A DNA stretch of 64,000 bases from an uncultured delta proteobacterium (GCA_963701845.1 CAVPBF010000006.1:477084-541083); one strand, 5' to 3'; positions 13,275-38,373 are shown, counted from the stretch's first letter. Program-made: numbers and translations. The notes: a model not told the origin generated them from the letters alone.

Positions 13275-14159
13275 ATGGATGCGGAACTCAACCAATTTTA
13301 TCAGCATCTGACCGTGGAACGGGGGCTGGCGGCGCTGACCGTGGCCGCCTATGCGAGTGATCTCCAGGATTTCTGGCAATTTGCCGAGGAACGGGAGCTG
13401 TCCGCCTGGACTGCGGTGTCCCTGAATGATCTGCAAGACTACCTGGCCAACCTGGAAGGGCGGGGCCTGTCGGCCCGCAGCCGGGCCCGGAAGCTCTCGG
13501 CCCTGCGCCAGTTTTTCCGGTTCCTGCAGCGGGAGGAGAAGCTGAAGGCCAATCCCGTGGAACTCTTGGACTCCCCCCGTTTGCCCCGGCGGTTGCCCAA
13601 GGTGTTGGGGGAGGATGAGGTGGCGGCTTTGTTGAATGGGCCGGACCCCGGCACCCCTCTGGGGCAGCGGGACGCGGCCCTGCTGGAGCTGCTTTATGCC
13701 ACCGGGCTCCGGGTCTCGGAGTTGGTGGGTCTGACCCTGAAGCAACTGGACTTGCGGCGAGGGGTGGTGCGGCCCCTGGGCAAAGGCTCCAAGGAGCGGG
13801 TGGTGCCCATGGTGGCGCAGGCTACGGCGAAGATCGAGCTGTTCCTGGCCCAGGGCCGGGTTCAGCTCCTCAAGGGCCGCCAGAGTCCCTATCTCTTCGT
13901 CAATGTCCGGGGCGGGAAGCTGAGCCGCCAGGGTTTTTGGAAGATCTTGAAGCACTATGCCCTGAAACAGGGAATTGGGAGCCTGAGCCCGCATACTTTG
14001 CGCCACTCCATGGCCACCCATCTGCTCTCCCGGGGGGCCAACCTGCGGGTGATCCAACTGCTGCTGGGCCATGCCGACCTGGCCACCACCCAGATCTACA
14101 CCCATCTGGACGCGGCGCGCTTGAAAAAGGCGCACGAGAAGGCCCATCCGCGCTCATGA
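13275..14159 (+). CDS. xerD: tyrosine recombinase XerD
   Basis: 294 aa. SAM-like N-domain (LTVERGLAALTVAAYASDL) and catalytic C-domain with LRHSMATHLL and LLGHADLATTQIYTHL. Confidence 0.85.
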   Translation: MDAELNQFYQHLTVERGLAALTVAAYASDLQDFWQFAEERELSAWTAVSLNDLQDYLANLEGRGLSARSRARKLSALRQFFRFLQREEKLKANPVELLDSPRLPRRLPKVLGEDEVAALLNGPDPGTPLGQRDAALLELLYATGLRVSELVGLTLKQLDLRRGVVRPLGKGSKERVVPMVAQATAKIELFLAQGRVQLLKGRQSPYLFVNVRGGKLSRQGFWKILKHYALKQGIGSLSPHTLRHSMATHLLSRGANLRVIQLLLGHADLATTQIYTHLDAARLKKAHEKAHPRS

Positions 14160-14432: not shown

Positions 14433-17114
14433 ATGGACCAGCGCAATCCCAATCACCGCCAGAATAATCATAACGAGCCGCCCGCCTCGCCCCGCACCCT
14501 GGAGGTGATCACCACCCACCTGAACGCCGACTTCGACGCCATGGCCTCCATGGTGGCGGCCAAGAAGCTCTATCCGAGGCGCCTCCTGGTCTTTCCGGGC
14601 TCCCAGGAGCGCAACCTGCGGGATTTTTTCATCCGCTCCAGTTTTTATTTCCTGGATTTTGCCCGGAGCCGCAACGTGCCGCCGGAGGAGATCAAGCGCC
14701 TCATCCTGGTGGACACCCGCCAGTCCTCCCGCATCGGCAAATTCGCCGAGGCGGCCGCTGTCCGGCGAAGTGGAAATCCACGTCTACGACCACCACCCGA
14801 TCCCGCCGAAGACGTCCACGGCAGCCTGGAAGTGGTGGAGATGCGGGCTCCACCACCGCCATCCTGACCCGGCATAATCCAGGAGCGGGGCCTCGCCCTG
14901 GCGCCCCAGGAGGCCACCATCATGGCCCTGGGGATTTCGAGGATACCGGCTCTTTCACCTTCGCCTCCACCACGCCCCAGGATTTCGAGGCCGCCGCCTT
15001 TCTGCTGAGCCAGGGGGCCGACCTCAACGTGGTCTCCGAGATCATCACCCGGGAACTCACCGCCGAGCAGGTGGCCCTGCTCGAACGACCTGCTGGAGCA
15101 CTCCACCAGCTTTCACGTGAGCGGCATCGAGGTGGTCCTGGCCCGCACCACAGCCCCGGAGTATGTGCCGGATTTTGCCGTGGTGGCCCATAAGCTCATG
15201 GACATGGAGAACATCCAGGTGCTCTTTGCCCTGGCCCAGATGGAGGACCGGGTCTTCGTGGTGGGCCGCAGCCGGCTGCCGGAGGTGGACGTGGCCGAGA
15301 TTCTGGCCGAACTGGGCGGCGGCGGCCACAGCTACGCCGCCTCCGCCGCCATCAAGGACCAGCCCCTGGCCCAGGTGGAGGAAAAGCTGCGCCAGATTCT
15401 GCAAGACCGGGTCCATCCCGGGCGCCGGGCCCGGGAGATCATGTCCTTCCCGGTGAAATCGGTGACCGCCGGAGGTCACCCTGGAGCGAGGCGGAACTGA
15501 TCCTTAACCGGTACAGCATCAACGCCCTGCCGGTGGTGGCCGACGGCCAGCTCCTGGGGGTGATCACCCGGCAGATGGTGGAAAAGGGAATTTTCCACGG
15601 CCTGAAGAGTCATCCGGTGAAGGACTATATGACCACCGAGGTGGCCACCGTGGACCCGGAGGCCCCGCTGCCGGAGATCCGGGACCGGCTGGTGGTCAAC
15701 AAGCAGCGCATCCTGCCGGTGGTGGAAGAACGGCAAGGTCATCGGCATCATCAGCCGCACCGACCTCCTGCACCTGCTCATCGCCGAGCGACGACGAGGC
15801 CCAGTGGTCCCAGCCCGTGCGCACCAAGAACATCGACTCCCTGATGCGGGAGCGGCTGCCCAAGGACATCCTGGAAATCCTCAAACAGGTGGGGCGGTGG
15901 CCGCGGAGCTGAAGTTCCAGGCCTACGTGGTGGGCGGCTTTGTCCGGGACCTGCTGCTCAGCCATGAGAACCTGGACATCGACATCGTCATCGAAGGGGA
16001 CGCCATCGTGTTCGCCCGGAAGTTTGCCGCCCGCTACGGGGCCCGGTCCCGGGAGTTCCAGAAATTCAAGACCGCGGTGATCATTTTCCCGGACGGCTTC
16101 AAGATCGACGTGGCCACGGCCCGCACCGAGTATTACGAGGCCCCGGGGGCCCTGCCCATCGTGGAATACAGCTCCATCAAGATGGACCTCTACCGCCGGG
16201 ATTTCTACCATCAACACCCTGGCGCTGAAGCTCAATCCCGGGGAGTTCGGCATCCTGCTGGACTTCTTCGGGGCCCAGCGGGACCTGAAGGAAGGGCGCA
16301 TCAGCCTGCTCCACAACCTGAGCTTCGTGGAGGACCCCACCCGGGTCTTCCGGGCCATCCGCTTCGAGCAGCGTTTCAAGTTCCGGATCAGCAAACTCAC
16401 CGCCAACCTCATCAATAACGCGGTCAAGCAACAACTTCTTCGACCGGCTCTCCGGGGCCCGGCTGTTCCAGGAACTCAAACTGATCCTGCAGGAGGAGAA
16501 CCCCATCCCCGCCATCGCCCGCCTGGCGGAGCTGGACCTCCTGAAGGCCGTCCATCCCCGGCTGGCCTATCGACGAGGGCGCCCGCCGCCATGCTGGAAC
16601 GGGTCCAGGCGGTGCTCTCCTGGTACGACCTGCTGTTACCTGGAAGATCACTACCAGCGCTGGTTGGTCTATTTTCTGGGGTTGGTGGAACCGTTCAGTT
16701 CCGGGGAACTGGCGGAGATGCTGCGGGGTTTCAATGTGTCGCCGAAACTGGCCGGGGCCCTGGTCAAGGGCAAAGAGGCGGCGGACCAGGCCCTCCTCAG
16801 CCTCTTCCGCCTGGGGGAGCCCAACCGCAGCCAGATTTACCATCTGCTGGCGCCGCTGGAGACGGAATACCTGCTATACATGATGGCCAAATCCCGCCAG
16901 GAGGCTTCCCGGCGGTTCATCTCCCTCTTTTTCACCCACCTCAAGAAGCTCAAGCCGGAACTCACGGGGGCGGGACCTGGTGGCCCTGGGTTACCAGCCC
17001 GGGCCGCTGATCAAAGAGATGCTGGAGCGGCTGCTGGAGGCGCGGATCAACGAGAAGGTCAAGAGCCGGAAGGAAGAAAAGGACTTCATCCGGCGCGCCT
17101 TCGGCCCGCCTTGA
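14433..17114 (+). pseudogene. DHH/DHHA1-CBS-poly(A) polymerase/tRNA nucleotidyltransferase family protein, frame broken about a dozen times
   Basis: Recognisable peptide runs are spread over all three plus frames: LEVITTHLNADFDAMASM, EVEIHVYDHHP, GGGGHSYAASA, CBS pair, YVVGGFVRDLLL, RRDF-TINTLA, SFVEDPTRVFRAIRFEQRF. The last frame ends at the TGA at 17112-17114. Confidence 0.8.
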
Positions 17115-17230: not shown

Positions 17231-20173
17231 TCAGGCGGACCGGAGAAACTCTTTGGCCAGGCGCTCCCAGCCTAATTCGGGGTACTGACCGTAGACGTCG
17301 TCGATGATCACCCCGCCGGACTGGAGAGTGGCGCCCACCGAGGGTTCCAGCATTCCTAGGAGCCTGAGGGACTCCTCTTCGATCCAGGCGGCGTTGCCCT
17401 CGCCAAAGGTCAGCTTTTCCAGGTCCGGCTTCAGGTTGGTGGCGGCCACGACCAGCAGCCAGCCCTCACCGTAAGGGTCGTCATGGGCCAGTTCAGGTCT
17501 CGCCAGGACCTGGGGATTCACCGCTTCGACGACACCGTCCAGAGGCGCCAGGACCGCGGCCGTTCCTCCCTGGCGACCCAGCGCCAGCGCCGCCTTATCA
17601 CGGCGAATTTCCTCCCCGATCACCGGCAGCCGAATTTCATCGCCGGGCCCCAGGACCTTCTGGGAAAAGTCATCCAGACCCAGGCGCACCCTGCCGCCAT
17701 GCTCCAGAGCCACCCAGGTATGACCCCGGTGGAGGTAACGGGAAGTCGGGACCTGCAGGCCGAAGACTTCCTCAAGTCGCTCGACCAGCTTGGCTAAATT
17801 GACGGCACACCCATGGTAGGCCGGCATCCCGGCGATGGGGTCCAGAGGCGAATTGACGAGGCGGTTAACCACGTCCTCCAGGAAGTGCCGCGGCAGGAAA
17901 GCCGCGCCCGGCCTGACCCGAGCGCTCATCCGGGCGGTGGCCGTGATGGCGCCCTGGCGGCTGCTAAACCTGATTGGTTCTCCCGACTGAATCCCCAGAT
18001 CCCGGGCATCCAGGGAATTGATTTCGATGCAGACCTCGCGGTCTTCCCGGGGGAGGGCGGAGTAACGCGGCATCCCGGCGCCGGTGAGATGCGGGGTGAA
18101 GCTGCTTCCGGTCGTCAGCCAGAAAGGATAGGCGGCGTCCGTTGCCGCGCTCTTTTGGCTGAGGTTGGCCAGCAACTGGTCCACCGCGTTGATCAAATCC
18201 CGGGGGGCGTTGGCGGCCAGGGAATGAAATAACAACCGGCCGGGATCGATGCCGGCCTCAGCCAGAAGCGTCTGCACCTGCTCCACCCCCCATTCGGCAA
18301 ACCGGTTGCCATGGGAAGATTGGCAATTTTCCCGGGGGCAGGAAAGGACCATCACGCCGTCGGCGCCCGCGGTGAAGGCCTGCAGCAAATAATCGGGGTC
18401 AACCTTGCCGGCACAGGGCACCTTGATGGGAGTGAAGCCCAAGGGCAGAGAGGCCTGATTCTGCTTCACCGCGGTTTGATAGGCTTCCCAGGCAGAGTTG
18501 CGGCACATGAAGGCCACGATGCGGGGGCTCAAGAGGGGGTCGAGGGTCGCCAATTGAGCCGCAAGCTGTTCGTCGGTGAAATTCCGGACCTGGATGGCGT
18601 CATTGGGGCACTGGCTGGCGCAAATGCCGCAGCCCTGGCAGGCCAGCTCATTGATAATGGCCCGATTGTCCCAAGTTATGGCGCCGTGAGGGCAGAGCCG
18701 GTAGCAGGTCAGGCAGAGGACGCAGCGGCCGCGGTCCACCGCGGCCCACCCCTGGGGAGCGACCGCCTCGCCCCGGCCCAGGAGGGTTTGAATCTCATTA
18801 ACCGCGGCGCTGACATCGGTGTTGGTCTCTTCCAGGTCCAGGATCCCCCGGCCCGGTCCGATGACATAAATGCCCCGGCGGGGGGTGGCCACCGGGGTGT
18901 GGTGCACGTTGCCGGACTGGAGAAAGCCCCCGGAGCCTAAGGGGAGGCGGAGCCGTTCGGCCAGCCCGGCGTTTGCCGCGGCGGCCTGGTAGGATTCATC
19001 GCAAGCCACCAGGTCAACCGCCAGACCCAGGTCCTCGCGGATCGTCGGCTCAAAGAAGCCAACCACCAGCCCCTCGTCCAGCACGCTGACGGCAGGAGAC
19101 TCGCTCAGCTTGATGAGCAGCATCCCGGCTTCCTGGTTGGCTCGCAGGGCCCGCGCCAGGCCCGGGCCCGCCAGCTTGGTGTTACCCACCAACAGGTAAA
19201 CCCGGCTGCCGGCCGCCAGCAGGCGGGAGGCCGCCTTGAGGGCTCGACCCAGGGCCAGGGGATGGCTCTCCCCCGCCAGGCCCACCAGGAGCGCGGCAGT
19301 TTCCGGGATTGGCGCTTCGGAGCCGCGGCTCAACCGCGCTTCCAGCCGGGTCTGGGAGACCACCCCCGGATGATCGGGGACGCGATAGCGGTGGGGGGCA
19401 GCTTCCATTAGCTGCAACTCGGGGGCCAGCACCAGCGCGCCAACCTGCTCGGTCACGCGGCCGTGCGGGGTATCCAGCCGCAGGGTAAAATTGCCGGTAA
19501 CGCCGCCTAGATCAACGATTTGGGCGGCACAAATCGTCTTGATAAGAGAGTGTTCCCGGGCCTGCCGGACCAGCCGGGCCATGGACTCAGAATCAGCCGC
19601 ACCTTCAGCATCCTCCAAGGCGAGGGGAGTGAGTCCCGGGTTGGGGCCGGCCAGAATAACCGGGTAGCCCAGCTGGGCCAATTCCCAGGCGGCTTGCAGA
19701 CCGGCGGCGGAATCACCCCAGACCAGGACCTGACGGGAAACGGGGATAGATTGAGGGACCTGGGGCCGGGCCCGGCTGACTTGCGAGGCCGCCAGGCGCA
19801 CCATTTCCAGAGCTTTGGCGGTCCGGGAGCCCGGGTCCGGGTGGCCCAGGGCCGCGGTCAGGTCCACGTGCATGAGGCATTCCGGGTTCAGCCCCAACTC
19901 GCCCGTTAACAGGCGGGCCACGCCGGCCCCGCGGTGCTCCGGGTCTTGGGCCGCGAGGACCACGGGATTTAGCTCCCGGTCCTGGCTCAGGAAGCGGCGC
20001 ACCAGCTCCTCTTGCTCGACGGTCGGCAGGGCCGGATCTACCGGCAACACCCGGCAGTTCGGCAAGTTCGCCACTGCCTGGGAAAAGTCTTGGGGATCGA
20101 GGCCGGCGCTAACCAGCTCCGGGCCATGCAGCACCAGGACATTCACCGGTTTCAACGCCTCGGAGAGATTCAT
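17231..20173 (-). CDS. multidomain redox fusion: degenerate HdrA-like module, 2x[4Fe-4S] ferredoxin, MvhD, FwdD-like molybdopterin-dinucleotide-binding barrel, GcvH-like domain
   Basis: Start set at MNLSEAL (ATGA overlap with the upstream stop at 20170). Ferredoxin CVLCLTCYRLCP/CQGCGICASQCP (about 18584-18736). MvhD RIVAFMCRNSAW...ADGVMVLSCPRENCQ (about 18164-18532). Molydop-binding-like EVCIEINSLDARDLGIQSGEPIRF (about 17789-18136). GcvH-like LHRGHTWVALE...DDPYGEGW (17234-17776). Confidence 0.75.
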   Translation of the reverse strand: MNLSEALKPVNVLVLHGPELVSAGLDPQDFSQAVANLPNCRVLPVDPALPTVEQEELVRRFLSQDRELNPVVLAAQDPEHRGAGVARLLTGELGLNPECLMHVDLTAALGHPDPGSRTAKALEMVRLAASQVSRARPQVPQSIPVSRQVLVWGDSAAGLQAAWELAQLGYPVILAGPNPGLTPLALEDAEGAADSESMARLVRQAREHSLIKTICAAQIVDLGGVTGNFTLRLDTPHGRVTEQVGALVLAPELQLMEAAPHRYRVPDHPGVVSQTRLEARLSRGSEAPIPETAALLVGLAGESHPLALGRALKAASRLLAAGSRVYLLVGNTKLAGPGLARALRANQEAGMLLIKLSESPAVSVLDEGLVVGFFEPTIREDLGLAVDLVACDESYQAAAANAGLAERLRLPLGSGGFLQSGNVHHTPVATPRRGIYVIGPGRGILDLEETNTDVSAAVNEIQTLLGRGEAVAPQGWAAVDRGRCVLCLTCYRLCPHGAITWDNRAIINELACQGCGICASQCPNDAIQVRNFTDEQLAAQLATLDPLLSPRIVAFMCRNSAWEAYQTAVKQNQASLPLGFTPIKVPCAGKVDPDYLLQAFTAGADGVMVLSCPRENCQSSHGNRFAEWGVEQVQTLLAEAGIDPGRLLFHSLAANAPRDLINAVDQLLANLSQKSAATDAAYPFWLTTGSSFTPHLTGAGMPRYSALPREDREVCIEINSLDARDLGIQSGEPIRFSSRQGAITATARMSARVRPGAAFLPRHFLEDVVNRLVNSPLDPIAGMPAYHGCAVNLAKLVERLEEVFGLQVPTSRYLHRGHTWVALEHGGRVRLGLDDFSQKVLGPGDEIRLPVIGEEIRRDKAALALGRQGGTAAVLAPLDGVVEAVNPQVLARPELAHDDPYGEGWLLVVAATNLKPDLEKLTFGEGNAAWIEEESLRLLGMLEPSVGATLQSGGVIIDDVYGQYPELGWERLAKEFLRSA

Positions 20174-21405
20174 GTCCTTGCCTCCAGATATTGGCGCACC
20201 TGGCGGACCGACTGGGTCGCCTGGGCGATGCATTCCAAAATGCTTTGAGGGCCGGTCGCGGTGCCGGCCAGGAAAACGCCCGGGGCTTCGCCGTTGCCTC
20301 CCTGCAAAAAGCCATCCGGCGTCAGTGACAGGTGCAGCATTGCCGCCAGCCTGGCATTGTCCGGCCCAGGGGCGATGCCCACCGCCAGGACCAGGAGATC
20401 GACCACCCGGGACAGGGCTTTGCCGCTGGCCTCGTCCAAAAAACGCAGCTTTAGACTCCCGTCCCCCGTGGCGTCCAGGTTGCCGGGGAGGGCCCGGATC
20501 AACTCCACTTCCCGCCGGGCGTCGGCCGCGAAATTCTGGGGATCAGGGCCAACATTCTGCAAATCCATGTAAAAAGTGGTCACCTGGCACTCCGGCCAAC
20601 GATGCCGGATCAGCCGGGCCAGGCGCAAGCCATAGGCGCAGCAGACCCGGGAGCAATACTGGTGCTCCTGGTCCCGGCTGCCCACGCACTGGATGAAGGC
20701 CAGACGCCGGACCGGCCGGCCGTCGCCAGGCCGGACCAGAGGCCCACCCTGCCGCATCATCTCCTCCAATTCCGAGCCGGTGATGACCTGGGGTGAACGG
20801 CTGTGAGCATAGACCGCCCGGGGAGCAGCCTGGGCAGGTTGATAACCGGTGGCCAGGATGAGGCTCGGGGTCGAAAGGGCCGCCACGGTCCCGGGCCGGG
20901 CCAGGTCGATGGCCCGGGTGGGGCAGAGGTCCTGGCAGCGGCGGCAGGAACCATCCTGAAAATAGAGGCAGGCGGCCGGATTCACGGCAAAGCGAGGATG
21001 ATTCTCAGCTGAGGGCGCGCTCAATATGCCCCCCTGGGCAGGACATTCGTCCAGGCAGAGACCGCAATTTATGCAGCTTTGGGGGTCGATGACCTGGGGT
21101 TGCGACTTCAAAGTCAGGTGCAGTAGACCATGGTCAGACCGGGTTTCCACCAGCTCCGTGTGCGCATACAGGGAGATCTCCGGTGCGGCAAGCAGGTCCC
21201 GCAAACCCTGTTCAACCCGGCAGGCCCCACATTTCTGGCAGACATCGGTGGCCTTGCAGCCGAAGCTGGCGGCCCGCCCGCCGAAAAAGGGGCTCTTCTC
21301 CACCAGGGCCACCGGGAGTCCCGCCCGGCTTAACTCCAAGGCCGCGGTAATCCCGGCGATGCCGCCACCCAGAACTACCACCGGATTAGTTTCAGCGTTT
21401 CTCAT
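20170..21405 (-). CDS. short HdrA/QmoA-like FAD-dependent oxidoreductase with inserted ferredoxin domain
   Basis: 411 aa with VVVLGGGIAGITAALEL dinucleotide fold, CINCGLCLDECP and CRRCQDLCP clusters, and the HdrA-type [20 protein letters not shown] motif. Confidence 0.75.
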   Translation of the reverse strand: MRNAETNPVVVLGGGIAGITAALELSRAGLPVALVEKSPFFGGRAASFGCKATDVCQKCGACRVEQGLRDLLAAPEISLYAHTELVETRSDHGLLHLTLKSQPQVIDPQSCINCGLCLDECPAQGGILSAPSAENHPRFAVNPAACLYFQDGSCRRCQDLCPTRAIDLARPGTVAALSTPSLILATGYQPAQAAPRAVYAHSRSPQVITGSELEEMMRQGGPLVRPGDGRPVRRLAFIQCVGSRDQEHQYCSRVCCAYGLRLARLIRHRWPECQVTTFYMDLQNVGPDPQNFAADARREVELIRALPGNLDATGDGSLKLRFLDEASGKALSRVVDLLVLAVGIAPGPDNARLAAMLHLSLTPDGFLQGGNGEAPGVFLAGTATGPQSILECIAQATQSVRQVRQYLEART

Positions 21406-21423: not shown

Positions 21424-22317
21424 TCAGGCACCCGCCGTCTCCAGAACCAGGGCCATCAAGTCGCCCCGGCCCCGGGCCTTCACGTAGACGCCGTCCGCGA
21501 GTTTTTCCTCTCTGATCTTTTTGAGCAGGCGGCCGGCCAGAGTCGCGCCCTTCCTTAAAATTTCTTCCTGATCATCTGCAGCCAGTTCTTTGACCACCTG
21601 GTCCGGCAGGGAATATACCTTCCGGTGTTCACCCCGGGCCGCCTGGTCCACTTCCGCGGCCTTAGGCACCTTGAGGCAGGCCAGCAGCTTCACCGTCTGC
21701 GGCTCCAGTGATTGCCGGAATTGACGGAGCTTCTCCAGGTCGAAAACAGGCGCGGTGATAAAAAATTCGGCTCCTGCCTCCAGCTTTTTCCTAACCTTAA
21801 GTTGCTGGGGACCCACCGGGTCGGCCTCAGGGATGAGGACCGCCCCCAGGCAGAAGTTGGGGTGGCCCTGCAGGGGAAGACCGGTGCTATCGTGACCTGC
21901 CATCATTCCCCGGGCAATTTGCAGCAGCTGCACCGAATCGGCGTCATAGACCGGCTTGGCGTCAGGATGATCGCCCAGGCTGACGAAATCGCCGCTCAAC
22001 GCCAAGATATTCTCCAGACCCAGGGCTCCGGCGCCCAGCAAATCGCTCTCCAAGGCCAGGCGGTTACGATCCCGGCAGGTCATGAGAAGCAAAGGTTCGC
22101 CCCCAGCTTCTTTGACCAGCCTGGCCGCGGCCAGGGCCGAGAGTTTCATCTTGGCATGCTCGTTGTCCGGAATCCCGAAGGCAGTCACCTTGCCATTGAG
22201 CGCTTTCAGCGGAGCCAGCATCCCCTCCAGATCGATCCCCTTGGGAGGTTTAATTTCCATCAGGATGGGGAACCGGCCGCCTTCCAAAGCTTCCCTGAGC
22301 TTACTCATGGACCCCAT
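21424..22317 (-). CDS. metF: methylenetetrahydrofolate reductase MetF (acetogen/Hdr-associated type)
   Basis: 297 aa MTHFR fold signatures (FPILMEIKPPKG, LLLMTCRDRNR, ENILALSGD). Directly follows metV. Confidence 0.85.
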   Translation of the reverse strand: MGSMSKLREALEGGRFPILMEIKPPKGIDLEGMLAPLKALNGKVTAFGIPDNEHAKMKLSALAAARLVKEAGGEPLLLMTCRDRNRLALESDLLGAGALGLENILALSGDFVSLGDHPDAKPVYDADSVQLLQIARGMMAGHDSTGLPLQGHPNFCLGAVLIPEADPVGPQQLKVRKKLEAGAEFFITAPVFDLEKLRQFRQSLEPQTVKLLACLKVPKAAEVDQAARGEHRKVYSLPDQVVKELAADDQEEILRKGATLAGRLLKKIREEKLADGVYVKARGRGDLMALVLETAGA

Positions 22318-22981
22318 ATCTCCTCTTATAACCCGGATGGATCACCGTCCCGGGGGTAGTGCCCGCGGCGTGAGGATGGAGCGGCAAGATCGGCTCGATC
22401 TGCCCCAGCCGTCCTGCCTGGGCCAACTTTTCATAAATCTCGCACCAGGCGCAGGCCCGGTCCGGATTGACCTCGCACTTCCCCTGGATGTTGCCGCCGC
22501 AAGGACCGTTGAGCAGCCCCTTGGGACACATGGTTTTCGGGCAAATCCCCCCGGTCACTCCCAGGTAACATTGGTGGCAGGCCCGGCAGCGCTCAGTGTA
22601 ATAGCCCGCGGCCTCGTTGACTCCGATGAAGGTGGTGTTGAGGGCCGGGAAGACCGGTTTCATCTGGGGCAGCGCGGCCAGAAACTGCACCCCGGCGCCG
22701 CAAGCCGTTGAGATAACCGCGTCATAATCAGCCGCGGCGTCGCCCAAGGGCCGGATAAATTCCAGGTCGCACTGGCGCTCCACCGTGATTTCCCCGATCT
22801 TCGGGTGCTTGCCAACTTGTCCCAGGGCCAGCTTCAGTTGCGAGGCCAGCAGGCCCACCTCTTTTTCGCCGCCCGCCAGGCACACCGCCACACAGGTGCC
22901 GCACCCGGCAATGAGGATCTTGTCAAAGGGGGCTACCGCCGCCTTGATTTCCGCAAAAGGTTTCCGCTCCGCGATAATCAT
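22301..22981 (-). CDS. metV: MetV, Cys-rich small subunit of methylenetetrahydrofolate reductase
   Basis: 226 aa with ILIAGCGTCVAVC and the C-terminal Cys cluster CRACHQCYLGVTGGICPKTMCPKGLLNGPCGG typical of the MTHFR C-terminal/MetV domain. ATGA overlap with mvhD. Confidence 0.8.
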   Translation of the reverse strand: MIIAERKPFAEIKAAVAPFDKILIAGCGTCVAVCLAGGEKEVGLLASQLKLALGQVGKHPKIGEITVERQCDLEFIRPLGDAAADYDAVISTACGAGVQFLAALPQMKPVFPALNTTFIGVNEAAGYYTERCRACHQCYLGVTGGICPKTMCPKGLLNGPCGGNIQGKCEVNPDRACAWCEIYEKLAQAGRLGQIEPILPLHPHAAGTTPGTVIHPGYKRRYGVHE

Positions 22982-23439
22982 CCTTGCACCGCCAGTTCTA
23001 GTTCTTCCGGGACCACCGCCCCTGGTTCCCGTATCGACACCAGGGGACTAGGGCCCAGAGCTTTAACTCTGTCAGTCATCTCTTTCACTGCGGCCACCCA
23101 TTTGGGGGCGTCCGAGGCGGCCACCTCATACATGACCAGGCGCTCCGCCCCCAGGCCGCACTCTTCCAGCAGATGCTGGGCGTATTCCACCCGTTCCCGG
23201 GCTCGGAGATTTCCCTCCAGGAAATGGCAACTCCCGGCCTCGCAGCCACTCACCATGATGCCATCGGCCCCGGCCTCAAAGCCCTTCAGGATGTGGATGA
23301 TGTCGATCCGGCCGGTGCACAGGTACTTGACGATGCGCACGTTGGCCGGGTACTGCATCCGGGCCGACCCCGCCATATCCGCGGCCGTGTAGGTGCAGTA
23401 GGTGCAAATCAAGGCCAGTATTTTGGGAGTAAATTCCAT
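22978..23439 (-). CDS. mvhD: MvhD-like [2Fe-2S] protein, Cys form
   Basis: ILALICTYCTYTAADMAGSARMQYPANVRIVKYLCTGRID...ADGIMVSGCEAGSCHF matches the MvhD/FlpD signature. Cys occupies the position that is TGA in the paralog at 38370-38900. Confidence 0.85.
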   Translation of the reverse strand: MEFTPKILALICTYCTYTAADMAGSARMQYPANVRIVKYLCTGRIDIIHILKGFEAGADGIMVSGCEAGSCHFLEGNLRARERVEYAQHLLEECGLGAERLVMYEVAASDAPKWVAAVKEMTDRVKALGPSPLVSIREPGAVVPEELELAVQG

Positions 23440-23448
23440 TTGTTATCC

Positions 23449-26400
23449 TCAACTCCTTGCGCCTAAGTCGACCGCGGGCCAGGGCAGCCCGATGGCCTCA
23501 ATTTTGGCAATGAATTGCTCGTCCAGGTTGTGCTTCACTGCAATGGCCTTCCGGGGGCAGGCGCTGGCGCAGTTGCCGCAGCCCTGGCAGGAGGCGGCGT
23601 CGATGACTACCACTCCTTCGCTTTCATCCATCCTGGGAACCCCGTAGGGGCAGGTGCGCACACAGGTGAGACAGGCGGCGCACTTGAGGGGGTCCACCTG
23701 GGCCACCGCTCCGGCCACGTACATCTCCTCCTGGGACAGAACCCCCAGGGCCCGGGCCGCGGCGCCCTGGGCCTGGGCGAGGCTTTCGTCCAGGAACTTG
23801 GGACCGTGGGCCAAGCCGCACAGGAAGATGCCGCTGGAGGCGAAGTCCAGGGGCCGCAGTTTCAGGTGGGCCTCCATGAAGAAGCCGTCGGCATCGAAAG
23901 GCAGCTTGAATACTTGGGCGATTTGCTGACTCACCGGATGAGGCCGGATGGCCGCGGACAGGACCAGGTAATCGGCCGGAAGGGCCAGGGTTGCCTGCAA
24001 CGACTGGTCGAAGACCGAGACCGTGAGGCCCTGGGCCGTCGCGGCCACTTCGGGTTGGCGGTCAGGCTCAAAGCGCACAAACTGCACCCCCAGGTCCCGG
24101 GCCTGCTTGTAGTAAATCTCCTTCAGGCCATAGGTGCGGATGTCCCGATAGAGGATGAAGACCTGGGCGTCCGGATTGAGCTCTTTGAGGGTAATGGCGT
24201 TTTTGACGGCCTCGCCGCAGCAGGTGCGGCTGCAATACTGGTGCTCCGGTGAACGTGAGCCGACGCATTGGATCATCACTACCCTGGGTGCGGTGTTTAC
24301 AACCTCCGGAGTGTCCGCCAGCAGGTTCTCCAATTCCATTTGAGTCAAGACTCGGGAATCCTGACCATAGAGGTATTCCGCCGGTTTATACTCCTCGCCC
24401 CCGGTGGCGACCACCACCGCGCCGTATTCCACTTCCCGGCGGCCGTCCGCCGATTCCACCGTACTCCGGAATTTGCCGATATGGCCGGAGACGTCCAGGA
24501 CCCGGGTGTTGGGCCACCAATCGATACGGGGATGGTTTTCCACCCGGCGCACCAGCTCCTGGAGATACGGCTGAATTGCATGGCCTTCCAGGGTGCGGCG
24601 CATTTCCCGGGCCAGGCTGCCGCCCAGCCGGTCCTGGGCTTCCGTCAGGTAGACCTGGTAGCCGCCGTCGGCAATGGTCAGGGCGGCCGTCAGGCCGGCC
24701 AGACCGCCCCCCACCACCAGCGCCTTCTGGGTTACCGGGAAGAGCAGGTCGCCCAAAGGCTCGAGGATGGCGGCCCGGGCTACCGACATGCGCACCAGTT
24801 CCCTGGCCTTCTCGGTGGCCAGTTCCGGGGTCCCCTGATGGACCCAGGAGTCCTGGTCCCGGATGTTGGCCATCTCAAACAGGTACTTGTTCAAGCCCGC
24901 CTTGCGCAGATTCTCCTGGAACAGGGGTTCATGGGTCCGGGGGCTACAGGAGGCCACCACGATCCGGTTCAGGTTTTCGGTTTCGATTACCCGGCGCATG
25001 TTGTCCAGAGAATCCGTGGCGCAGGTGAAGGTATAGTGATCGGTGTACACCACGCCAGGGAGCGTGCGGGCGTAATCGGCCACCGCCGCCACGTCCACCA
25101 CCCCGGCGATGTTGATGCCGCAGTGGCAGACAAAGACGCCGATCCGGGGCGCCGCCCCGCTGGTCTCCTTTTCCGGGGGGTAGGCTTCCTTGGTGAGCAG
25201 GGTGCCCCGGGCCTCGGCGAGCAGGGAGGCCGCCGCTCCGGCCGCGCCGGAGGCCTGGGTCACGGTCTCGGGGATATCTTTGGGAGACTGGAAGACGCCG
25301 CAGGTGAAGATCCCTTCCCGGGAAGTGGACACCATCTCCAGCGGCGGGCTCACGGCAAACCCCCAGCGATCCGTGGCGATATCGCAGTTGGCCGCCAGTT
25401 CCCGGGCAGCCGGATGGGGGTTCAGGCCCACCGACAGCACCACCAGGTCAAAGATTTCGGTTTGCAGCTGGCCGGACTCGTCGACGTAATTGAGCTCCAG
25501 ATTATGGCTGCTGGGGTCTTGGGCCACCCGGGAGATCATCGCCCGGATATAGCGCACCCCGTGGTCGGTCTTCGCCCGCTCGTAGTACCGGTCAAAGCCC
25601 TTTCCCTGGGCGCGGAAATCGATGAAAAAGATGGTGGGCTCAATATTATGGTCGTGCTCCCGGGCGATGATGGCCTGCTTGGTGGCGTACATGCAGCAGA
25701 CGTAGGAACAATATTCCCGGCCGCAGGAAGCGTCCCGGGAGCCCACGCACTGGATCCAGGCCACTTTCCGGGGCGGGGCGCCGTCGCTGGGGCGTTGAAC
25801 GTGCCCGCCGTACGGACCGGTAGCCGACAGCACTCGCTCGAACTGTAACGACGTCACGACATTGGGATAGCGGCCGAACCCGTATTCGGGCTTCTGGCCG
25901 GCGTCGAAAGGCCGGAAGCCCGGCGCCAGAATCATGGCCCCCACTTCAATTTGCCGGGTATGGGGCTGCTCCTGATGGTTAATGGCGCCGGCTTGGCAGG
26001 CTGACACACACTGCATGCATTCGGAACACCCGCCGCAATTGAGGCAGCGCGCCGCTTCGGCTAGGGCCTCCTGCCTCGGTAAAGCCCTGGTTGATTTCCT
26101 GAAAGCCCTTGACCCACTCGGCCGGCGGCAACTCCGGCATCACGGCCCGCGGCTTTTTGATGGCGTCGGCCGGCAGCGGAGTCCAATTGCCCTCTGCCTG
26201 GGGAATGGGGCGCAGGGGCAGTTCGCGCCCAGCTTTGAGGTCCTGGCCCTGGAGATAGCGGTCGATGGAGAGGGCGGCTTCCCGGCCCGCGGCCACCGCG
26301 GCGATGGCGATGTAAGGACCGGAGACCACGTCGCCCCCGGCAAAGACGCCCTCCCGGCTGGTGGCCAGGGTGTCCGGATCCGCCTCGATCAGGCCGCGGG

Positions 26401-27928
26401 GAGTGAGTTTGATGCCATCCGCGTCAGTGATGAATTTGAGGTTGGTCCGCTGGCCGATGGCCAGGATGACGATATCGGTGCTCCGAGTAGTGGTTTGATC
26501 TTCCAGATAGGTGGGAGCGAAGCGCCCTTGCGCATCAAAGACCCGTTCCACGGCCCTGAGTTCGAGGCCGCTGACCTTGCCCTCCCGAGCCAGGATCTGC
26601 TTGACGCCCCACCGGTGGCTGATCTCGATGCCTTCCTGCTCGGCCTCCGCCACTTCCCAGGAGGAAGCCGGCATCTCTTCCCGGGTTTCGAGCGAGATCA
26701 AGGTGACCTCGCCCCCCTGGCGCCGGGCCGTGCGGGCCACGTCCATGGCCACGTTGCCGCCGCCGACGACCGTCACTTTTTGGCCCTGGAAATCGAACTT
26801 TTGACCCGAGGCCGAGTCTTTGAGATATTCGACGCCCCAGAGGACTCCCTGGGCGTCCGCGCCGGGCACCGGCAGGCGGATGGAGTCTTGCGCCCCGACG
26901 CCCAGGAAGACCGCCCGGAAGCCTGCGGTGGTGAGCAGATCGTTGATGGTGCGGCCGGGGCCGCCGATGGGGGAGTTATAGTTGATCTGCACCCCCAGGC
27001 GCTGGATGTAGTCCACTTCCCGTTGCAGGACATCCTTGGGCAGGCGGTATTCCGGAATGCCGTAGCGCAGCCAGCCGCCGGCCGCCGCGGCGGCCTCGAA
27101 GATCACCGCCTGATAGCCTTGGAGGGCGAGATGATAGGCGCAACTTAAACCGGACGGCCCGGACCCGATAATGGCCACGGCCTCGGAGCGCTCAGGCACC
27201 TCGGGCACCGGCAGCGTCTGCCAGTCCACCGCATCGGCCACAAAGCGCTTCAGGCTGCAGATGGCCACGGGTTCGTCCACTTCCTGGCGCCGGCAGTCCG
27301 TCTCGCAGGGATGGGGGCAGATGCGGCCGATGGTGCCGGGGAGCGGCAGCCGGTCCAGGATGAGGGACAGGGCCTCGGGAAATTTCCCGGCCTTGATGAG
27401 CTGCACATAGCCCTGCACGCTCAAATTCGCCGGACAGCCACGCACACAGGGCCCCCGATCCAGTTTCTTGATGGCAAAGGTGGCCGGGATCGCCTGGGGG
27501 AAGTGCCGGTAGGCGGCATGGCGCACGCCCAGGCCTGCATCGAAAGACGAAGGCAGTTCCACCGGGCAGGCCTCGGCGCAGGCCCCGCAGGCGTTGCACT
27601 TGGCCCGGTCGATGTAACGGGGCTCCCGGCGGAGGGTGACGGTGAAACGGCCCGCCTCGCCTGCCACCGCGGCCACCTCGGACTGGGTGATGATCTCGAT
27701 GTCCGGGTGCCGGGCCACCTCGATGAGCTTGGGGGAGATCAAGCAGGTGGAGCAATCGTTGGTGGGGAAGGTCTTGTCCAACTGGGCCATGACCCCGCCG
27801 ATGGAGATGTCTTTCTCCACCAGATAGACCTTGAAACCCGCATTCGCCGCGTCCAGGGCGGCCTGCATGCCGGCGATGCCGCCCCCCACCACGGAAATGG
27901 CGCCGATTTTGGTGTGGTCAGTGGGCAT
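23449..27928 (-). pseudogene. hdrA: giant HdrA-GltD/NfnB-like-HdrA fusion (HdrL-like), Cys form, one frameshift as sequenced
   Basis: ORFs 25979-28138 and 23449-26016 are collinear with the intact paralog at 42146-46609. Start [22 protein letters not shown] at 27928 (TAATG junction with hdrB). Motif TNDCSTCLISPKL. The junction reads FTEA / EALAEAARCLNCGGCSEC, and deleting one G of GCAGGAGG (about 26070) restores the frame. The first ORF ends in TAA, so this is not a Sec codon. Confidence 0.85.
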
Positions 27929-28782
27929 TACAGCAATCCTTTTTCCTGCAGTAACGGCCGGGGGTCCACCAAATGGCGGGCGAGCCAGCCCTCTGCCTCC
28001 GGGTGCCCCAGGGCCAAGCCGATCAGCTCGGTAAAATAGAACACCGGCAGATAATAATTTTTGCCCAACTTCTTGGAGATACGCGCCTGGGATAGATCGA
28101 GGTTGGCCTGGCACATCTGGCAGGCGACCACGAAACACTCCGCCCCGGCTGCCAGGGCCCGGTCATAGAGACGGCCTACCAGCGTCTCGATGATATCCGG
28201 CCGGGACATAGACAAACCGGCACCGCAGCAGTCGGTCTTGTAGGACCAGTCGAGGGGCTCGGCCTGCAGGATCTGAAGCAAGCGCTCCAAATCTTTGGGG
28301 TTTTCCCAATCCGCTTTATCCGTGATCGCCGGCGGCCGGGAGGCCAGGCAGCCGTAATAACCCACGGCTTTCAGGCCGGTCAGGGGCCGTACCAGCTTCC
28401 GGCCCAGGCTGGACAGAAATGACTCCTGGGTCAGAAAGTCCAGCAGGTCCCAGATCTTGATGTTTCCCAGGGTCTCTTCCCGGCCCTGCTGCGCCTTTTC
28501 GGCGGCCTTGAGCCGGTTGAAGCACAGGGCGCACGGCACCACTACGTCCCGCCCTTGCTCTCGGGCCAGGGCCAGATTGCGGGCCGGAAGCTCGAGAGAG
28601 AGCTGATGATTGAGGCTGTGCGCGGCACTGGCGCCGCAGCAGTTCCAATCTTCCAGTTCCGCCAACTCCAGACCCAGCAAGGGAGTGACGGCGGCGATGG
28701 AAGCGGCGTAATCCGCCGCGGTGCCTTCCAGGGAACAGCCCGGATAATAGGATACTTTCATGAGTTTACTTAAGCCCCGCAC
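27928..28782 (-). CDS. hdrB: heterodisulfide reductase subunit B-like (two CCG domains)
   Basis: KVSYYPGCSLEGTA, NCCGASAAH, GYYGCLASRPP and TDCCGAG are CCG-domain signatures. The start may instead be the internal MKVSYY at 28761. Confidence 0.85.
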   Translation of the reverse strand: MRGLSKLMKVSYYPGCSLEGTAADYAASIAAVTPLLGLELAELEDWNCCGASAAHSLNHQLSLELPARNLALAREQGRDVVVPCALCFNRLKAAEKAQQGREETLGNIKIWDLLDFLTQESFLSSLGRKLVRPLTGLKAVGYYGCLASRPPAITDKADWENPKDLERLLQILQAEPLDWSYKTDCCGAGLSMSRPDIIETLVGRLYDRALAAGAECFVVACQMCQANLDLSQARISKKLGKNYYLPVFYFTELIGLALGHPEAEGWLARHLVDPRPLLQEKGLL

Positions 28783-29383
28783 GGTGAAAAATAGCTTTGA
28801 TCTCCCCCCGCCCTTTGAGGGCGGGCGGGCCGACCGGACGCAGACGGCCGCGTCTGAACAGGGCCCAGCCGAGCTTAGAATTTTCCCAGAGTTCCTTGAT
28901 TTGCGGCCGGCGCCAGAGTTTAAACAGGGTAAAGCGTCGCATCAACGCCACTTCAGACAAGCGCCCCCCGGCCCGGCGCAGGCTTTCCAGGAAGAAGCGA
29001 TGGAAGGCTGCGACCTCCGGCTGGGAGATGGCCTTCCCCTGCCGGATCGCCTCCTCCTTGAGCCAGTCCATGACCCCGGCGATGTCGATGCCATTGGGGC
29101 AGCGAGTGCTGCAGGTGACGCAGGCGGCGCAGACCCAGATGGTCCGGCAATTCAGGAGCGTTTCGGTCTGCCCCAGGAGGGCCAGCCGGATGACCCGGTC
29201 CGGGAGCAAATCCATGGCAAAGGTCAGGGGACAGCCGGCGGAACACTTTTTACATTGAAAACAGGAGGACACCGGCAGGGCGGCTTCCTTGGCCAGGCGC
29301 TCCGGTAAGGAAAACGAAGGAAGCACCGGTTGATTTAGGTTGATTTCCATTAAGATCGGCTCCTGTTGTTGAGAGATCTCCAT
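28766..29383 (-). CDS. hdrC: heterodisulfide reductase subunit C-like (2x[4Fe-4S])
   Basis: CFQCKKCSAGCP and CAACVTCSTRCP motifs with an HdrC-like helical body. The start is probably the second ATG (29350), which follows AGGAG. Confidence 0.8.
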   Translation of the reverse strand: MEISQQQEPILMEINLNQPVLPSFSLPERLAKEAALPVSSCFQCKKCSAGCPLTFAMDLLPDRVIRLALLGQTETLLNCRTIWVCAACVTCSTRCPNGIDIAGVMDWLKEEAIRQGKAISQPEVAAFHRFFLESLRRAGGRLSEVALMRRFTLFKLWRRPQIKELWENSKLGWALFRRGRLRPVGPPALKGRGEIKAIFHRAGLK

Positions 29384-29463
29384 CTATTGCCTGCTATTCC
29401 CGTCAGGGCTTAATCCCGGTGCCTTTACTGAGAGATACTCATTTCTGCTTGGAATGGAATTAA

Positions 29464-29478
29464 GCAAGGCATATGCCA
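29464..29478 (-). promoter_or_regulatory. sigma54 (-24/-12) promoter for the hdrC-led operon
   Basis: The minus strand reads TGGCATATGCCTTGC (TGGCAT-N5-TTGC), one mismatch to TGGCAC-N5-TTGC, about 100 nt upstream of hdrC. Confidence 0.6.
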
Positions 29479-29934: not shown

Positions 29935-29949
29935 TGGCACATTCATTGC
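29935..29949 (+). promoter_or_regulatory. sigma54 (-24/-12) promoter for the GcvH-like gene pair
   Basis: TGGCACATTCATTGC is an exact TGGCAC-N5-TTGC. AAGGAGGGG RBS at 29971-29979 and ATG at 29987. Confidence 0.7.
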
Positions 29950-29986
29950 TTTCTTTTAGGTCAAACCTCAAAGGAGGGGCGAGCTG

Positions 29987-30693: not shown

Positions 30694-31572
30694 ATGGAAA
30701 AACCAGGTATCGAGGAGAAAAAGCCCTGCATCTGGATGGAAGCCGGGGTGATCGATTTCAAGATTTGCAATCATGATTTCGATTGTCTATCTTGCGATTT
30801 CGACCGGGTCATGAGTGAAACCGCGGCCCAGCATCCGGCCAGCCGCCCAGGCGGTGGACCGGTAGACCAGCCGGCTGCTCTGCCCCCCTGGGAGGGGAAA
30901 ATGCGGCAACGCTTCGAGGGGCAGCAGCAGTGCCGACTCATGCAGACCCGGCATTGCCACGAGTGTTCCTTCGATGAACTCCTGGAGGATCAATTTGAAT
31001 TCTTTCTGGCCCCGGAAAGACCCAGGGTGCAGGAGGTTTTCGGCATTGCGGTGCCGACCTCCAACTTTCTGCATCGGGGCCATACCTGGGTGGCCCTGGA
31101 GAACGCCGGCCGGGTCCGCATCGGCCTGGACGACTTTGCCGTGAAGGTCCTGGGGCCGCCGGATAAAATCAGCCTGCCTGACGTCGGGAAGGAGATTCAC
31201 TCCGATGAGGTGGCTCTGGTTCTATCCCGCCGCGGGAAAAAGGCCGCGGTCCTGGCGCCCCTCAACGGCGTCATCGAGGCAGTGAATCCCCAGATCCGGC
31301 AAAAGCCCGGTTTGACTCATGATGACCCCTACGGCGAAGGCTGGCTGTTCGTCGTCACCCCCAGCAATCTCAAAGCGGACCTGGAAAAAATGCTGTTTGG
31401 CCAGTGCAATGTCGCCTGGATCGACCACGAATCCCACCGACTGCTGGGCATGCTGGAAGCCGCCGCGGGCGTGACGCTGCCTTCCGGGGGAGTGATCATC
31501 GATGACGTCTTCGGCGCCTATCCGCAACTGGGCTGGAAGCGCCTGGTGCAGGAGTTTCTCCATAGCGCCTGA
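30694..31572 (+). CDS. Cys-rich N-terminal domain fused to a GcvH-like domain (subtype 1)
   Basis: N-part CIWMEAGVIDFKICNHDFDCLSC and CRLMQTRHCHEC. C-part LHRGHTWVALE...DDPYGEGW...GGVIIDDVFGAYPQLGW. It ends in EFLHSA, like the fusion protein at 17231 (EFLRSA). Confidence 0.75.
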   Translation: MEKPGIEEKKPCIWMEAGVIDFKICNHDFDCLSCDFDRVMSETAAQHPASRPGGGPVDQPAALPPWEGKMRQRFEGQQQCRLMQTRHCHECSFDELLEDQFEFFLAPERPRVQEVFGIAVPTSNFLHRGHTWVALENAGRVRIGLDDFAVKVLGPPDKISLPDVGKEIHSDEVALVLSRRGKKAAVLAPLNGVIEAVNPQIRQKPGLTHDDPYGEGWLFVVTPSNLKADLEKMLFGQCNVAWIDHESHRLLGMLEAAAGVTLPSGGVIIDDVFGAYPQLGWKRLVQEFLHSA

Positions 31573-37444: not shown

Positions 37445-37471
37445 GACTTCTCTCCAGGCTGCGACGCCCCA

Positions 37472-38290: not shown

Positions 38291-38308
38291 ATCAGTTATC
38301 CCATGCAG

Positions 38309-38373
38309 GGTGCGCGCCGCGCACCATTTTCAATCTTTGATTTGAACAAGTTGGTGCGCAGTGCGCACCCTAC
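38309..38373. repeat. two REP-like palindromes inside the operon
   Basis: GGTGCGCGCCGCGCACC (38309-38325) and GGTGCGCAGTGCGCACCCTAC (38353-38373). The second overlaps the mvhD stop codon at 38370-38372. Confidence 0.8.

Follow-up and report, generated by a model that had tools for sequence, protein, structure and literature searches.

We analyzed a 64,000-nucleotide (nt) stretch of DNA from an uncultured delta proteobacterium (GCA_963701845.1, CAVPBF010000006.1:477084-541083), referred to here as the window. On the evidence of sequence comparisons, the last gene of an hdr-metVF operon in this window encodes a genuine single polypeptide of 980 amino acids (aa). The protein joins an HdrA-like half to a ferredoxin domain, an MvhD domain, an orphan Molydop_binding barrel, and a GcvH-like domain (GcvHL) with a C-terminal tail. 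Our preferred reading, to which we give an even chance, is that this protein is an electron-wire and scaffold subunit of a MetFV-HdrABC-MvhD-type complex and carries a tethered, non-catalytic adaptor. Complexes of this type handle the thermodynamically awkward step between methylene- and methyl-tetrahydrofolate (THF) in the Wood-Ljungdahl pathway, and their second electron partner is still being sought (PMC8760232, PMC6085437).

The open reading frame (ORF) lies on the minus strand at 17231-20173, with its stop codon at 17231-17233. The minus-strand frame is uninterrupted over 17231..20233. A start at 20173 (MNLSEALK...) gives the 980-aa product, overlaps the stop codon of the upstream gene (ATGA), and agrees with the N-termini of all homologs. 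A preliminary description of this DNA had placed the ORF correctly but left its strand unstated; translating the plus strand of the same interval produces many stops. We found no terminator or promoter after the ORF. The same description called the product a polyprotein. This is the wrong term because there is no sign of cleavage, and the product is better described as a multidomain fusion protein.

We searched 5.8 billion proteins for homologs of the 980-aa protein. An identical protein is present on a 671-kb NCBI contig, and 30 further clusters of 962-980 aa (53-82% identity) have the same Pfam string. These long forms make up at least 31 clusters from four independent sources (NCBI, JGI, ENA, and Logan assemblies). 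Scanning one genome per species located the gene in metagenome-assembled genomes (MAGs) of Desulfobaccales, Desulfobaccia, and Syntrophobacterales, on contigs of up to 2.19 Mb. The architecture thus matches end to end in 31 non-identical clusters. Because these independent clusters come from four data sources and from contigs of this length, we ruled out an assembly chimera.

Profile hidden Markov models supported the Fer4, FlpD/MvhD, Molydop_binding, and GCV_H assignments. Together with NCBIfam searches, PDB sequence searches, and an alignment to HdrA, they bore out the domain order proposed earlier: HdrA-like, 2x[4Fe-4S], MvhD, barrel of the bis-pyranopterin guanine dinucleotide (bisPGD) type, and GcvH-like. 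Mean pairwise identity is 81% for the ferredoxin domain, 75% for MvhD, 70% for the tail, 67% for GcvHL, and 44.5% for the barrel. The protein has twelve invariant cysteines. Eight belong to the 2x[4Fe-4S] domain (residues 484, 487, 490, 494, 512, 515, 518, and 522), and the four in the MvhD domain (557, 587, 612, and 617) are predicted cluster ligands. The MvhD domain scored 97 bits against the FlpD model, for which the Pfam gathering cutoff is 22.3, and aligned to MvhD chains in the PDB with E values of 3e-10 to 1e-8.

The N-terminal half has no Pfam match, but alignment to solved HdrA structures showed that it is homologous to HdrA, as had been suggested. Residues 21-233 align with residues 17-234 of 5odc_A (E 5e-11 for the whole protein and 2e-9 for this stretch), and residues 417-472 align with the end of its flavin domain (517-572). 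Among NCBIfam models, HdrA2 gave the best match (217 bits, model positions 467-770). The protein has the C-terminal 2x[4Fe-4S] ferredoxin expected of HdrA, but its scores of 217, 119, and 118 bits lie far below the cutoffs for HdrA2 (1100) and HdrA (1300-1400). The cysteine positions of the HdrA N-terminal domain (MC, AACSP, and HCSW) are all replaced, and residues 1-470 contain no invariant cysteine. Cys40 occurs in 27 of the 31 long forms; otherwise, no column within residues 1-145 has Cys in more than five of them. Within residues 146-470, Cys reaches at most 21/31, in the column of residue 359, where the window protein has none. The flavin-domain region is also about 100 residues shorter than that of HdrA. 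The shorter length and the lack of invariant cysteines fit a loss of the inserted ferredoxin domain.

The preliminary description noted a degraded dinucleotide-binding motif, VLVWGDSAAGLQAAWEL. This segment corresponds to residues 149-165 and lies opposite the GGGVAG motif of HdrA. In the alignment GGGVAG is replaced by WGDSAAG, the beta2 Glu is replaced by Gly, and both the GGRM pyrophosphate loop and DCSIC are lost. The 980-aa protein therefore lacks the GxGxxG motif and the acidic residue at the end of beta2 that mark FAD-binding Rossmann folds. The motif is clearly altered, but decay is the wrong description. Of 66 displayed members (long, middle, and short), 60 carry VLVWGDSxA[AG]L intact, and the other six depart from it by single conservative substitutions. 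Because this variant is strictly conserved in the family, we interpret it as a fixed, FAD-less form of the motif.

The gene directly upstream encodes a 411-aa protein with an intact flavin site. This protein aligns with residues 153-565 of HdrA in PDB 8rvu_a (E 1.4e-55), covers positions 140-560 of the NCBIfam HdrA2 model, and retains GGGIAG...VEK. Its gene is directly upstream of the 980-aa homolog in 28/28 related loci examined. By these alignments, the 411-aa protein is a complete HdrA flavin core that would supply intact flavin binding. The pair resembles QmoA/QmoB because it consists of one flavoprotein and a flavin-less partner that brings ferredoxin and MvhD clusters.

We compared the 980-aa protein to QmoB and to HdrA-MvhD fusions. 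Like QmoB, it consists of an HdrA-like part, a 2x[4Fe-4S] ferredoxin, and an MvhD-like domain, and the gene for a QmoA-like flavoprotein of about 410 aa lies immediately upstream. The JGI pipeline labels three of its homologs QmoB (short forms P0046 and P0072 and long form P0014). QmoB binds FAD. The 980-aa protein is unlike QmoB in having the WGDSxA[AG] motif, the extra barrel, the GcvH-like domain, and the tail, and its gene sits in a metVF-hdrABC-mvhD operon rather than in qmoABC. We rejected identity with the Qmo complex itself because the window contains no qmoC, aprA, or aprB; hdrC scored 51 bits against a qmoC cutoff of 300. The N-terminal domain, ferredoxin, and MvhD domain are also homologous to chains in solved Mvh/Fdh-Hdr complexes (5ODC, 8RVU, and 7BKB), and the protein is comparable to HdrA2 and HdrA-MvhD fusions from Methanosarcina and Archaeoglobus. 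Such fusions have already been described (PMC2702500). Unlike HdrA, the 980-aa protein lacks the FAD determinants, the N-domain cysteines, and the inserted ferredoxin, and the flavin core is found on a separate polypeptide.

The operon that ends with the 980-aa gene (X) has the order hdrC-hdrB-hdrA/gltD-hdrA-mvhD-metV-metF-hdrA(core)-X. We examined 12 long-form loci: nine have the whole operon, and the other three lie on short contigs that cover only its distal end. At the gene level, co-location of metF, metV, hdrA, hdrB, hdrC, and mvhD and their conserved synteny match the type IV methylene-THF reductase (MTHFR) MetFV-HdrCBA-MvhD of the Moorella thermoacetica type. Compared with that system, the Desulfobaccales operon has three extras: a GltD/NfnB-like module on an HdrA fragment, the HdrA core, and the 980-aa protein. 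The MetFV-Hdr family has been reported in Desulfobacca acetoxidans (PMC6085437), and the literature we searched contained no biochemistry on the Desulfobaccales version of the operon. A looser unit, metV-(metF)-411-like-X, occurs at 35-39% identity in MAGs of Desulfobacterales and Desulfohalobiaceae.

Two proteins encoded upstream in this operon show an unusual arrangement. The 719-aa protein fuses a GltD/NfnB-like NAD(P)H module to HdrA residues ~142-302. The 855-aa protein opens with HdrA residues ~295-563, which are followed by a second, full HdrA. Together they look like one HdrA split around a GltD insertion, in the manner of HdrL. The 719-aa ORF is listed with a GTG start that makes it overlap hdrB; the true start is probably farther downstream. 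HdrL (HdrA-GltD fusions), selenocysteine MvhD, and MetFV-Hdr operons have been described (PMC2702500, PMC8760232, PMC6085437).

Shorter homologs bear on the origin of the C-terminal additions. Short forms of ~676 aa stop after MvhD and occupy the same operon end in several other loci, and forms of ~790 aa stop exactly after the barrel. In a neighbor-joining tree built from residues 1-672, which all forms share, the long forms fall in one clade, with the 790-aa forms nested inside. The tree therefore points to a single gain of the barrel and the GcvH-like part, with one later loss or split of the last domain.

We asked where the barrel came from using BLASTP, NCBIfam, and PDB searches. Its likeness to the C-terminal barrel of the selenocysteine FdhA encoded in the window, noted previously, holds at 43% identity over 122 residues (E 1e-23, BLASTP). 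The barrel does stand alone. PF01568 is present without the PF00384 catalytic domains of Mo/W-bisPGD oxidoreductases, and neither a Molybdopterin nor an Fe4S4 domain occurs elsewhere in the 980-aa protein. The preliminary description compared it to FwdD/FmdD of formylmethanofuran dehydrogenase. This comparison is apt for the architecture, a bisPGD-type domain-IV barrel unattached to a molybdopterin catalytic domain. It goes no further than architecture because the FwdD model scored 17.6 bits, far below its cutoff of 175, whereas the NasC and Fdh-alpha models scored best at 60-67 bits. Unlike FwdD/FmdD, the barrel groups with FdhA/NasC by sequence and is under relaxed constraint. We rejected FwdD/FmdD membership on this score and on the lack of a FwdB-like, barrel-less partner. 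The operon encodes no barrel-less molybdopterin subunit, and the sole molybdopterin protein of the window has its own barrel.

The barrel is the least conserved domain of the protein, with 7/112 columns invariant. Across the same four genome pairs, fused barrels are 33-50% identical, whereas catalytic FdhA barrels are 76-90% identical. The pterin-flanking motifs (N.L and DP) are kept in the barrel of the window protein but not in distant members. AlphaFold2 (AF2) modeled the barrel poorly, with a predicted local distance difference test (pLDDT) score of 40-80, and a homolog search with the barrel by itself returned 4 fragments. The barrel is probably a cofactor-less derivative of the FdhA barrel that provides a spacer or docking surface.

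The last domain adopts the fold of an H protein in structure predictions. We modeled the C-terminal 306 residues of the 980-aa protein and one free paralog with AF2. GcvHL was predicted with pLDDT >90, and in Foldseek comparisons the models gave template modeling (TM) scores of 0.85-0.90 and root-mean-square deviations of 1.4-2.2 Å to the best-matching H proteins. The Pfam GCV_H model agreed (58.6 bits against 22.2). The domain had been called GcvH-like, and its fold justifies the name, but it is not an H protein. The lipoyl lysine of the ESVK motif lies opposite a Gly in GRQGG. Among 154 copies (31 fused and 123 free), no position of the hairpin has a conserved Lys. Instead, 153 of the 154 have an Arg two positions before the lipoyl-lysine site; Arg867 is invariant in the fused domain. 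NCBIfam gcvH scores of 59.6 and 62.9 bits also fall short of the cutoffs (115.85 and 117). The earlier reading missed the tail of ~55 residues, which is conserved, absent from E. coli GcvH, and predicted with confident helices in the AF2 models. Mean identities of GcvHL and the tail exceed that of the HdrA-like half, and about a quarter of their columns are invariant. No Cys is conserved in any of the three C-terminal parts of the fusion (barrel, GcvHL, and tail).

GcvHL shares the H-protein fold and a genetic linkage to Hdr-like genes with GcvH and with LbpA of the sHdr systems. It is unlike both in lacking the lipoyl lysine and in having the invariant Arg and the C-terminal tail. In sulfur-oxidizing sHdr systems, LbpA has a lipoylated lysine, and the cluster contains dedicated lipoate ligase/lipoyl synthase genes. 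We rejected membership in GcvH, given the missing lysine and the scores below the gcvH cutoffs, and in LbpA, given the missing lysine and the absence of any lipoate ligase or lipoyl synthase gene in our survey of the 64-kb window. A conserved metal site in GcvHL was also considered and rejected; the His residues that are invariant in Desulfobaccales are not kept in the wider family. The lipoyl carrier 'LarG', encoded beside an Act complex in Pelobacter, is comparable in its gene neighborhood (PMC3543383).

The window encodes three free paralogs with the same hairpin and tail that are 52-68% identical to the fused domain. The closest is the 292-aa copy, at 66-68% identity by the alignment used. 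We searched 1.84 billion representative proteins with a profile of the four window copies and recovered 143 proteins with E values up to 1e-30, nearly all of which matched through the tail. The GcvHL+tail family thus comprises at least 143 clusters at 50% identity. Members are usually 220-310 aa long, and the names attached to them include Anaerolineae, Myxococcota, Melioribacteraceae, and Desulfobaccales. GcvHL and the tail are constant and the N-terminal part is variable. No conserved hairpin lysine was found in this wider family either. Its members are routinely misannotated as 'glycine cleavage system protein H'.

Other members are themselves fused to redox proteins. P0391 (940 aa) is a bona fide HdrA joined to a ferredoxin and GcvHL. 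P0270 (1391 aa, Anaerolineae) joins three GcvHL domains to a GlcD-type flavoprotein and an HdrD-like Fe-S protein with two CCG domains. GcvHL+tail has been joined independently to HdrA-ferredoxin and to GlcD-HdrD proteins. The preliminary description argued that the fusion in the 980-aa protein implies docking of the free paralogs onto the same Hdr machinery. These independent fusions support that argument, and in many loci free copies lie directly downstream of HdrB-like genes or are divergent from hdrC. Docking is therefore plausible, with the reservation that two of four distant loci, discussed below, have no Hdr-like gene.

Two further features of family members were noted. Array-final GcvHL genes encode an N-terminal extension with seven conserved cysteines (C-x12-C-x5-C-x2-C ... 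C-x7-C-x2-C). In the 292-aa protein this extension spans residues 1-100, has no Pfam match, and was modeled by AF2 with pLDDT 45-64; it may form a Zn or Fe-S site. The gene for the 1391-aa fusion (L085, JBHIET010000106.1, 3234-7409; FAD_binding_4/FAD-oxidase_C, Fer4_8, and two CCG domains) is preceded by genes for a PAS/GAF kinase and an OmpR-type regulator.

Promoter searches linked the free GcvHL genes to sigma-54. We used the consensus TGGCAC-N5-TTGCW and found two exact matches in the window, compared with 0.06 expected; both precede free GcvHL genes. Across 79 related loci there were 33 exact sites against ~1.3 expected, and 18 of these 33 lie ≤400 nt upstream of GcvHL genes. Allowing one mismatch gave 5 sites in the window against 2.4 expected, which is not significant. 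One such site (29463-29478, minus strand) lies ~80 nt upstream of hdrC, and similar sites occur in some related loci but not all. It might drive the whole hdr-metVF operon, and we treat it as a lead only.

The free genes are also linked to a two-component system. Downstream of tandem arrays of 2-4 GcvHL genes lie genes for a PAS histidine kinase and a sigma-54-dependent response regulator, an arrangement also seen in the window. An orthologous regulator gene lies within 2.5 kb of 27 of the 42 evaluable GcvHL arrays in Desulfobaccales loci. We looked up four distant genomes: cultured Desulfobacca acetoxidans (L080), an unrelated MAG (L082), L083, and a Myxococcota MAG (L084). In all four, genes for a histidine kinase, a sigma-54 response regulator, and a Peptidase_M54 protein adjoin GcvHL+tail. 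The M54 gene is missing from the kinase/regulator position in the window. Because of the promoters and the kinase/regulator linkage, GcvHL+tail genes look like the output of a dedicated two-component system, and the fused copy looks like its permanently installed version.

We propose the following model. The 980-aa protein would be the terminal subunit in the Desulfobaccales version of a type IV MTHFR operon that also encodes an NfnB/GltD-like NAD(P)H module. Residues 1-672 would act as a QmoB-like, flavin-less HdrA paralog that keeps the electron wire, with two [4Fe-4S] clusters and the MvhD [2Fe-2S] cluster. The protein most likely pairs with the 411-aa flavoprotein to give an asymmetric HdrA-type dimer with one FAD, which may pass electrons between that FAD and the remaining complex. 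The C-terminal 300 residues would have been added once, as a barrel copied from an FdhA-type formate dehydrogenase together with GcvHL and the tail. Freed from the constraint of holding a pterin, the barrel would probably serve as a spacer or docking platform. GcvHL would be the permanently tethered counterpart of an accessory protein that is regulated by sigma-54 and also made as free paralogs. Because neither has a conserved Cys, Lys, or other cofactor ligand, the barrel and GcvHL are expected to act by protein-protein contact rather than by redox or carrier chemistry.

Several observations weigh against this interpretation. L083 and L084 have no Hdr-like gene nearby, and the kinase/M54 neighborhoods fit a regulatory role at least as well as docking. 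The C-terminal module is missing in sister lineages with 676-aa forms, and GcvHL has been dropped in the one sub-lineage with 790-aa forms. The existence of these forms means that the module is not essential to the complex. Finally, residue 625 in the MvhD domain (18299-18301, minus strand) is Phe in the window protein, whereas 29/31 long forms have a fifth Cys there. A regulatory role is an alternative that these neighborhoods raise and that we regard as unlikely. GcvHL+tail would then be a signaling protein of the kinase, regulator, and M54 module. The fused and hdr-adjacent copies, instead of forming a structural adaptor, would signal the state of the redox complex or control it, for example by switching partners with the kinase or by inhibiting or activating the complex when induced. 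The conserved gene neighborhoods in L080, L082, L083, and L084, the regulator genes near Desulfobaccales arrays, the exact promoters in the window and related loci, and the constant GcvHL+tail beneath a variable N-terminal part all agree with such a role. However, the target of a regulator need not itself be a regulator, and the promoters would fit inducible accessory subunits equally well. Three independent covalent fusions to electron-transfer proteins favor a stoichiometric, physical role on redox enzymes, and we detected no DNA-binding, nucleotide-binding, or phospho-acceptor motif in the GcvHL domain.

Two other explanations appear less probable. GcvHL could be a carrier that swings a group or substrate to an HdrB/CCG site, along the lines of LbpA or of the GcvH/LpdA combination in the Wood-Ljungdahl clusters of acetogens. 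This would make it the 'second acceptor' that is still missing for the MetFV-Hdr enzyme. The H-protein fold, the presence of hdrB and hdrC in the operon, the HdrB-like genes immediately upstream of free copies elsewhere, and the three GcvHL domains fused to a CCG-domain protein are consistent with this idea. The second acceptor of type IV MTHFR is itself still sought, and the possibility that GcvH is a redox partner of MetVF has been raised (PMC8760232). We consider a carrier doubtful all the same, since the lipoyl lysine is absent and no Lys, Cys, or other nucleophile is conserved in the 154 hairpins or the wider family. The cysteine-free C-terminal module, the scores under the gcvH cutoffs, and the failure to find lipoate ligase or lipoyl synthase genes in the window argue in the same direction. 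The idea that a chance fusion left the barrel and GcvHL at the end of the operon as nearly or entirely functionless remnants is more doubtful still. It would account for the fast evolution of the barrel, the loss of pterin-contact motifs (N.L and DP) in distant members, the occurrence, at the end of the same operon, of short forms that do without the module, and the loss of GcvHL in one sub-lineage. It sits poorly with the conservation of GcvHL and the tail above that of the HdrA-like half, with retention of the in-frame fusion across a clade diverged to 53% identity, and with the independent origin of analogous fusions.

The Desulfobaccales operon has a richer subunit set than the known enzyme, including a built-in H-protein-like module and an asymmetric pair of HdrA proteins that resembles QmoA/QmoB. 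We also offer a broader and speculative proposal, which we regard as unlikely in its full form. GcvHL+tail would be an undescribed class of lysine-less H-protein-like proteins, switched on by a sigma-54 two-component system of their own that is often accompanied by an M54 peptidase. These proteins would plug into bifurcating Hdr-type enzymes and set their partner, direction, or activity, and the Desulfobaccales MetFV-Hdr enzyme would have hard-wired one copy through an FdhA-derived barrel. In that case the fused GcvHL would mark the interface for the 'second' redox partner of type IV methylene-THF reductases, or for its regulator. The repeated fusions to Hdr proteins and the sigma-54 linkage provide a testable entry into how anaerobes control and wire bifurcating complexes. 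Metabolic reconstructions take misannotated GcvHL genes as a sign of glycine cleavage or of the reductive glycine pathway. The new element is the accessory module, not the Hdr core. The open-access literature that we searched contained no account of three features: the extension by a barrel and a GcvH-like domain, the fixed WGDS motif, and the family of lysine-less GcvHL+tail proteins with its connection to sigma-54.

Table 1. Domains of the 980-aa protein and associated genes and promoters in the window.
Feature	Residues	Position	Strand	Remarks
HdrA N-terminal-domain homolog without HdrA's cysteines	1-145	19739..20173	-	Aligned to 5odc_A 17-133
Thioredoxin-reductase-like HdrA domain without FAD determinants or inserted ferredoxin	146-470	18764..19738	-	HdrA alignment
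Variant dinucleotide-binding motif VLVWGDSAAGL	149-159	19697..19729	-	Fixed across family
Fer4 x2, C-terminal ferredoxin domain of HdrA, 2x[4Fe-4S]	477-528	18590..18745	-	Pfam
MvhD/FlpD domain, putative [2Fe-2S]	552-671	18161..18520	-	Pfam FlpD, E 1.1e-27
Molydop_binding barrel, orphan, FdhA/NasC type	684-790	17804..18124	-	Pfam, E 4.2e-21, full model length
GcvHL, H-protein-like domain without lipoyl lysine	813-925	17399..17737	-	Pfam GCV_H, E 7.2e-16
Family-specific helical C-terminal tail	926-980	17234..17398	-	W..E..RL...G....GG...DD.YG..P.LGW..L..EFL
411-aa HdrA core flavoprotein		20170..21405	-	Intact GGGIAG, inserted ferredoxin, CSRVCC
metF		21424-22317	-	Pfam MTHFR
metV		22301-22981	-	Pfam DUF5981
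mvhD		22978-23439	-	Window annotation and synteny
855-aa HdrA		23449-26016	-	Window annotation and synteny
719-aa HdrA-fragment + GltD/NfnB-like protein		25979-28138	-	Start uncertain
hdrB		27928-28782	-	Window annotation and synteny
hdrC		28766-29383	-	Window annotation and synteny
Exact sigma-54 promoter TGGCACATTCATTGCT		29935..29950	+	37 nt upstream of first free GcvHL gene
Free GcvHL+tail gene, 211 aa		29987-30622	+	Same hairpin and tail
Free GcvHL+tail gene, 292 aa, Cys-rich N-terminus		30694-31572	+	Same hairpin and tail
Sigma-54-dependent response regulator		31711-33189	-	Convergent with GcvHL pair
PAS histidine kinase		33044-35317	-	Convergent with GcvHL pair
Third free GcvHL+tail gene, 317-aa ORF		46690-47643	-	True start probably internal
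Exact sigma-54 promoter (TGGCAC-N5-TTGCT)		47654-47669	-	Just before third free GcvHL gene

Other genes of the window were noted in passing. A tyrosine recombinase gene of the phage-integrase family (XerC/D-like; 13275-14159, plus strand) is located 3 kb beyond the downstream end of the operon. The two ORFs that separate it from the 980-aa gene (15696-16843, minus strand) match no Pfam model and lack counterparts in related loci.

The window also contains a second redox island (35402-46234 plus 46690-47643, minus strand). It encodes a selenocysteine FdhA, a Fer4 protein, a probable selenocysteine MvhD, a 944-aa polyferredoxin-HdrA, a 1362-aa GltD+HdrA protein of the HdrL type, and a GcvH-like protein. 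The island is syntenic in many Desulfobaccales loci, and in a paralogous cluster elsewhere a terminal HdrB-like CCG gene is followed directly by a GcvH-like pair. An in-frame TGA at 37042-37040 (HCARL-U-HSSTV), the usual selenocysteine site of formate dehydrogenases, divides FdhA (35402-37444, minus strand) into two listed ORFs. An unlisted MvhD-like ORF (38370-38879, minus strand) lies between the Fer4 gene and the gene for the 944-aa polyferredoxin-HdrA. It has an in-frame TGA at 38675-38673, at a conserved Cys position (GILVAG-U-HLGDCHY), and probably encodes a selenocysteine MvhD like that reported for Desulfobacterium autotrophicum.

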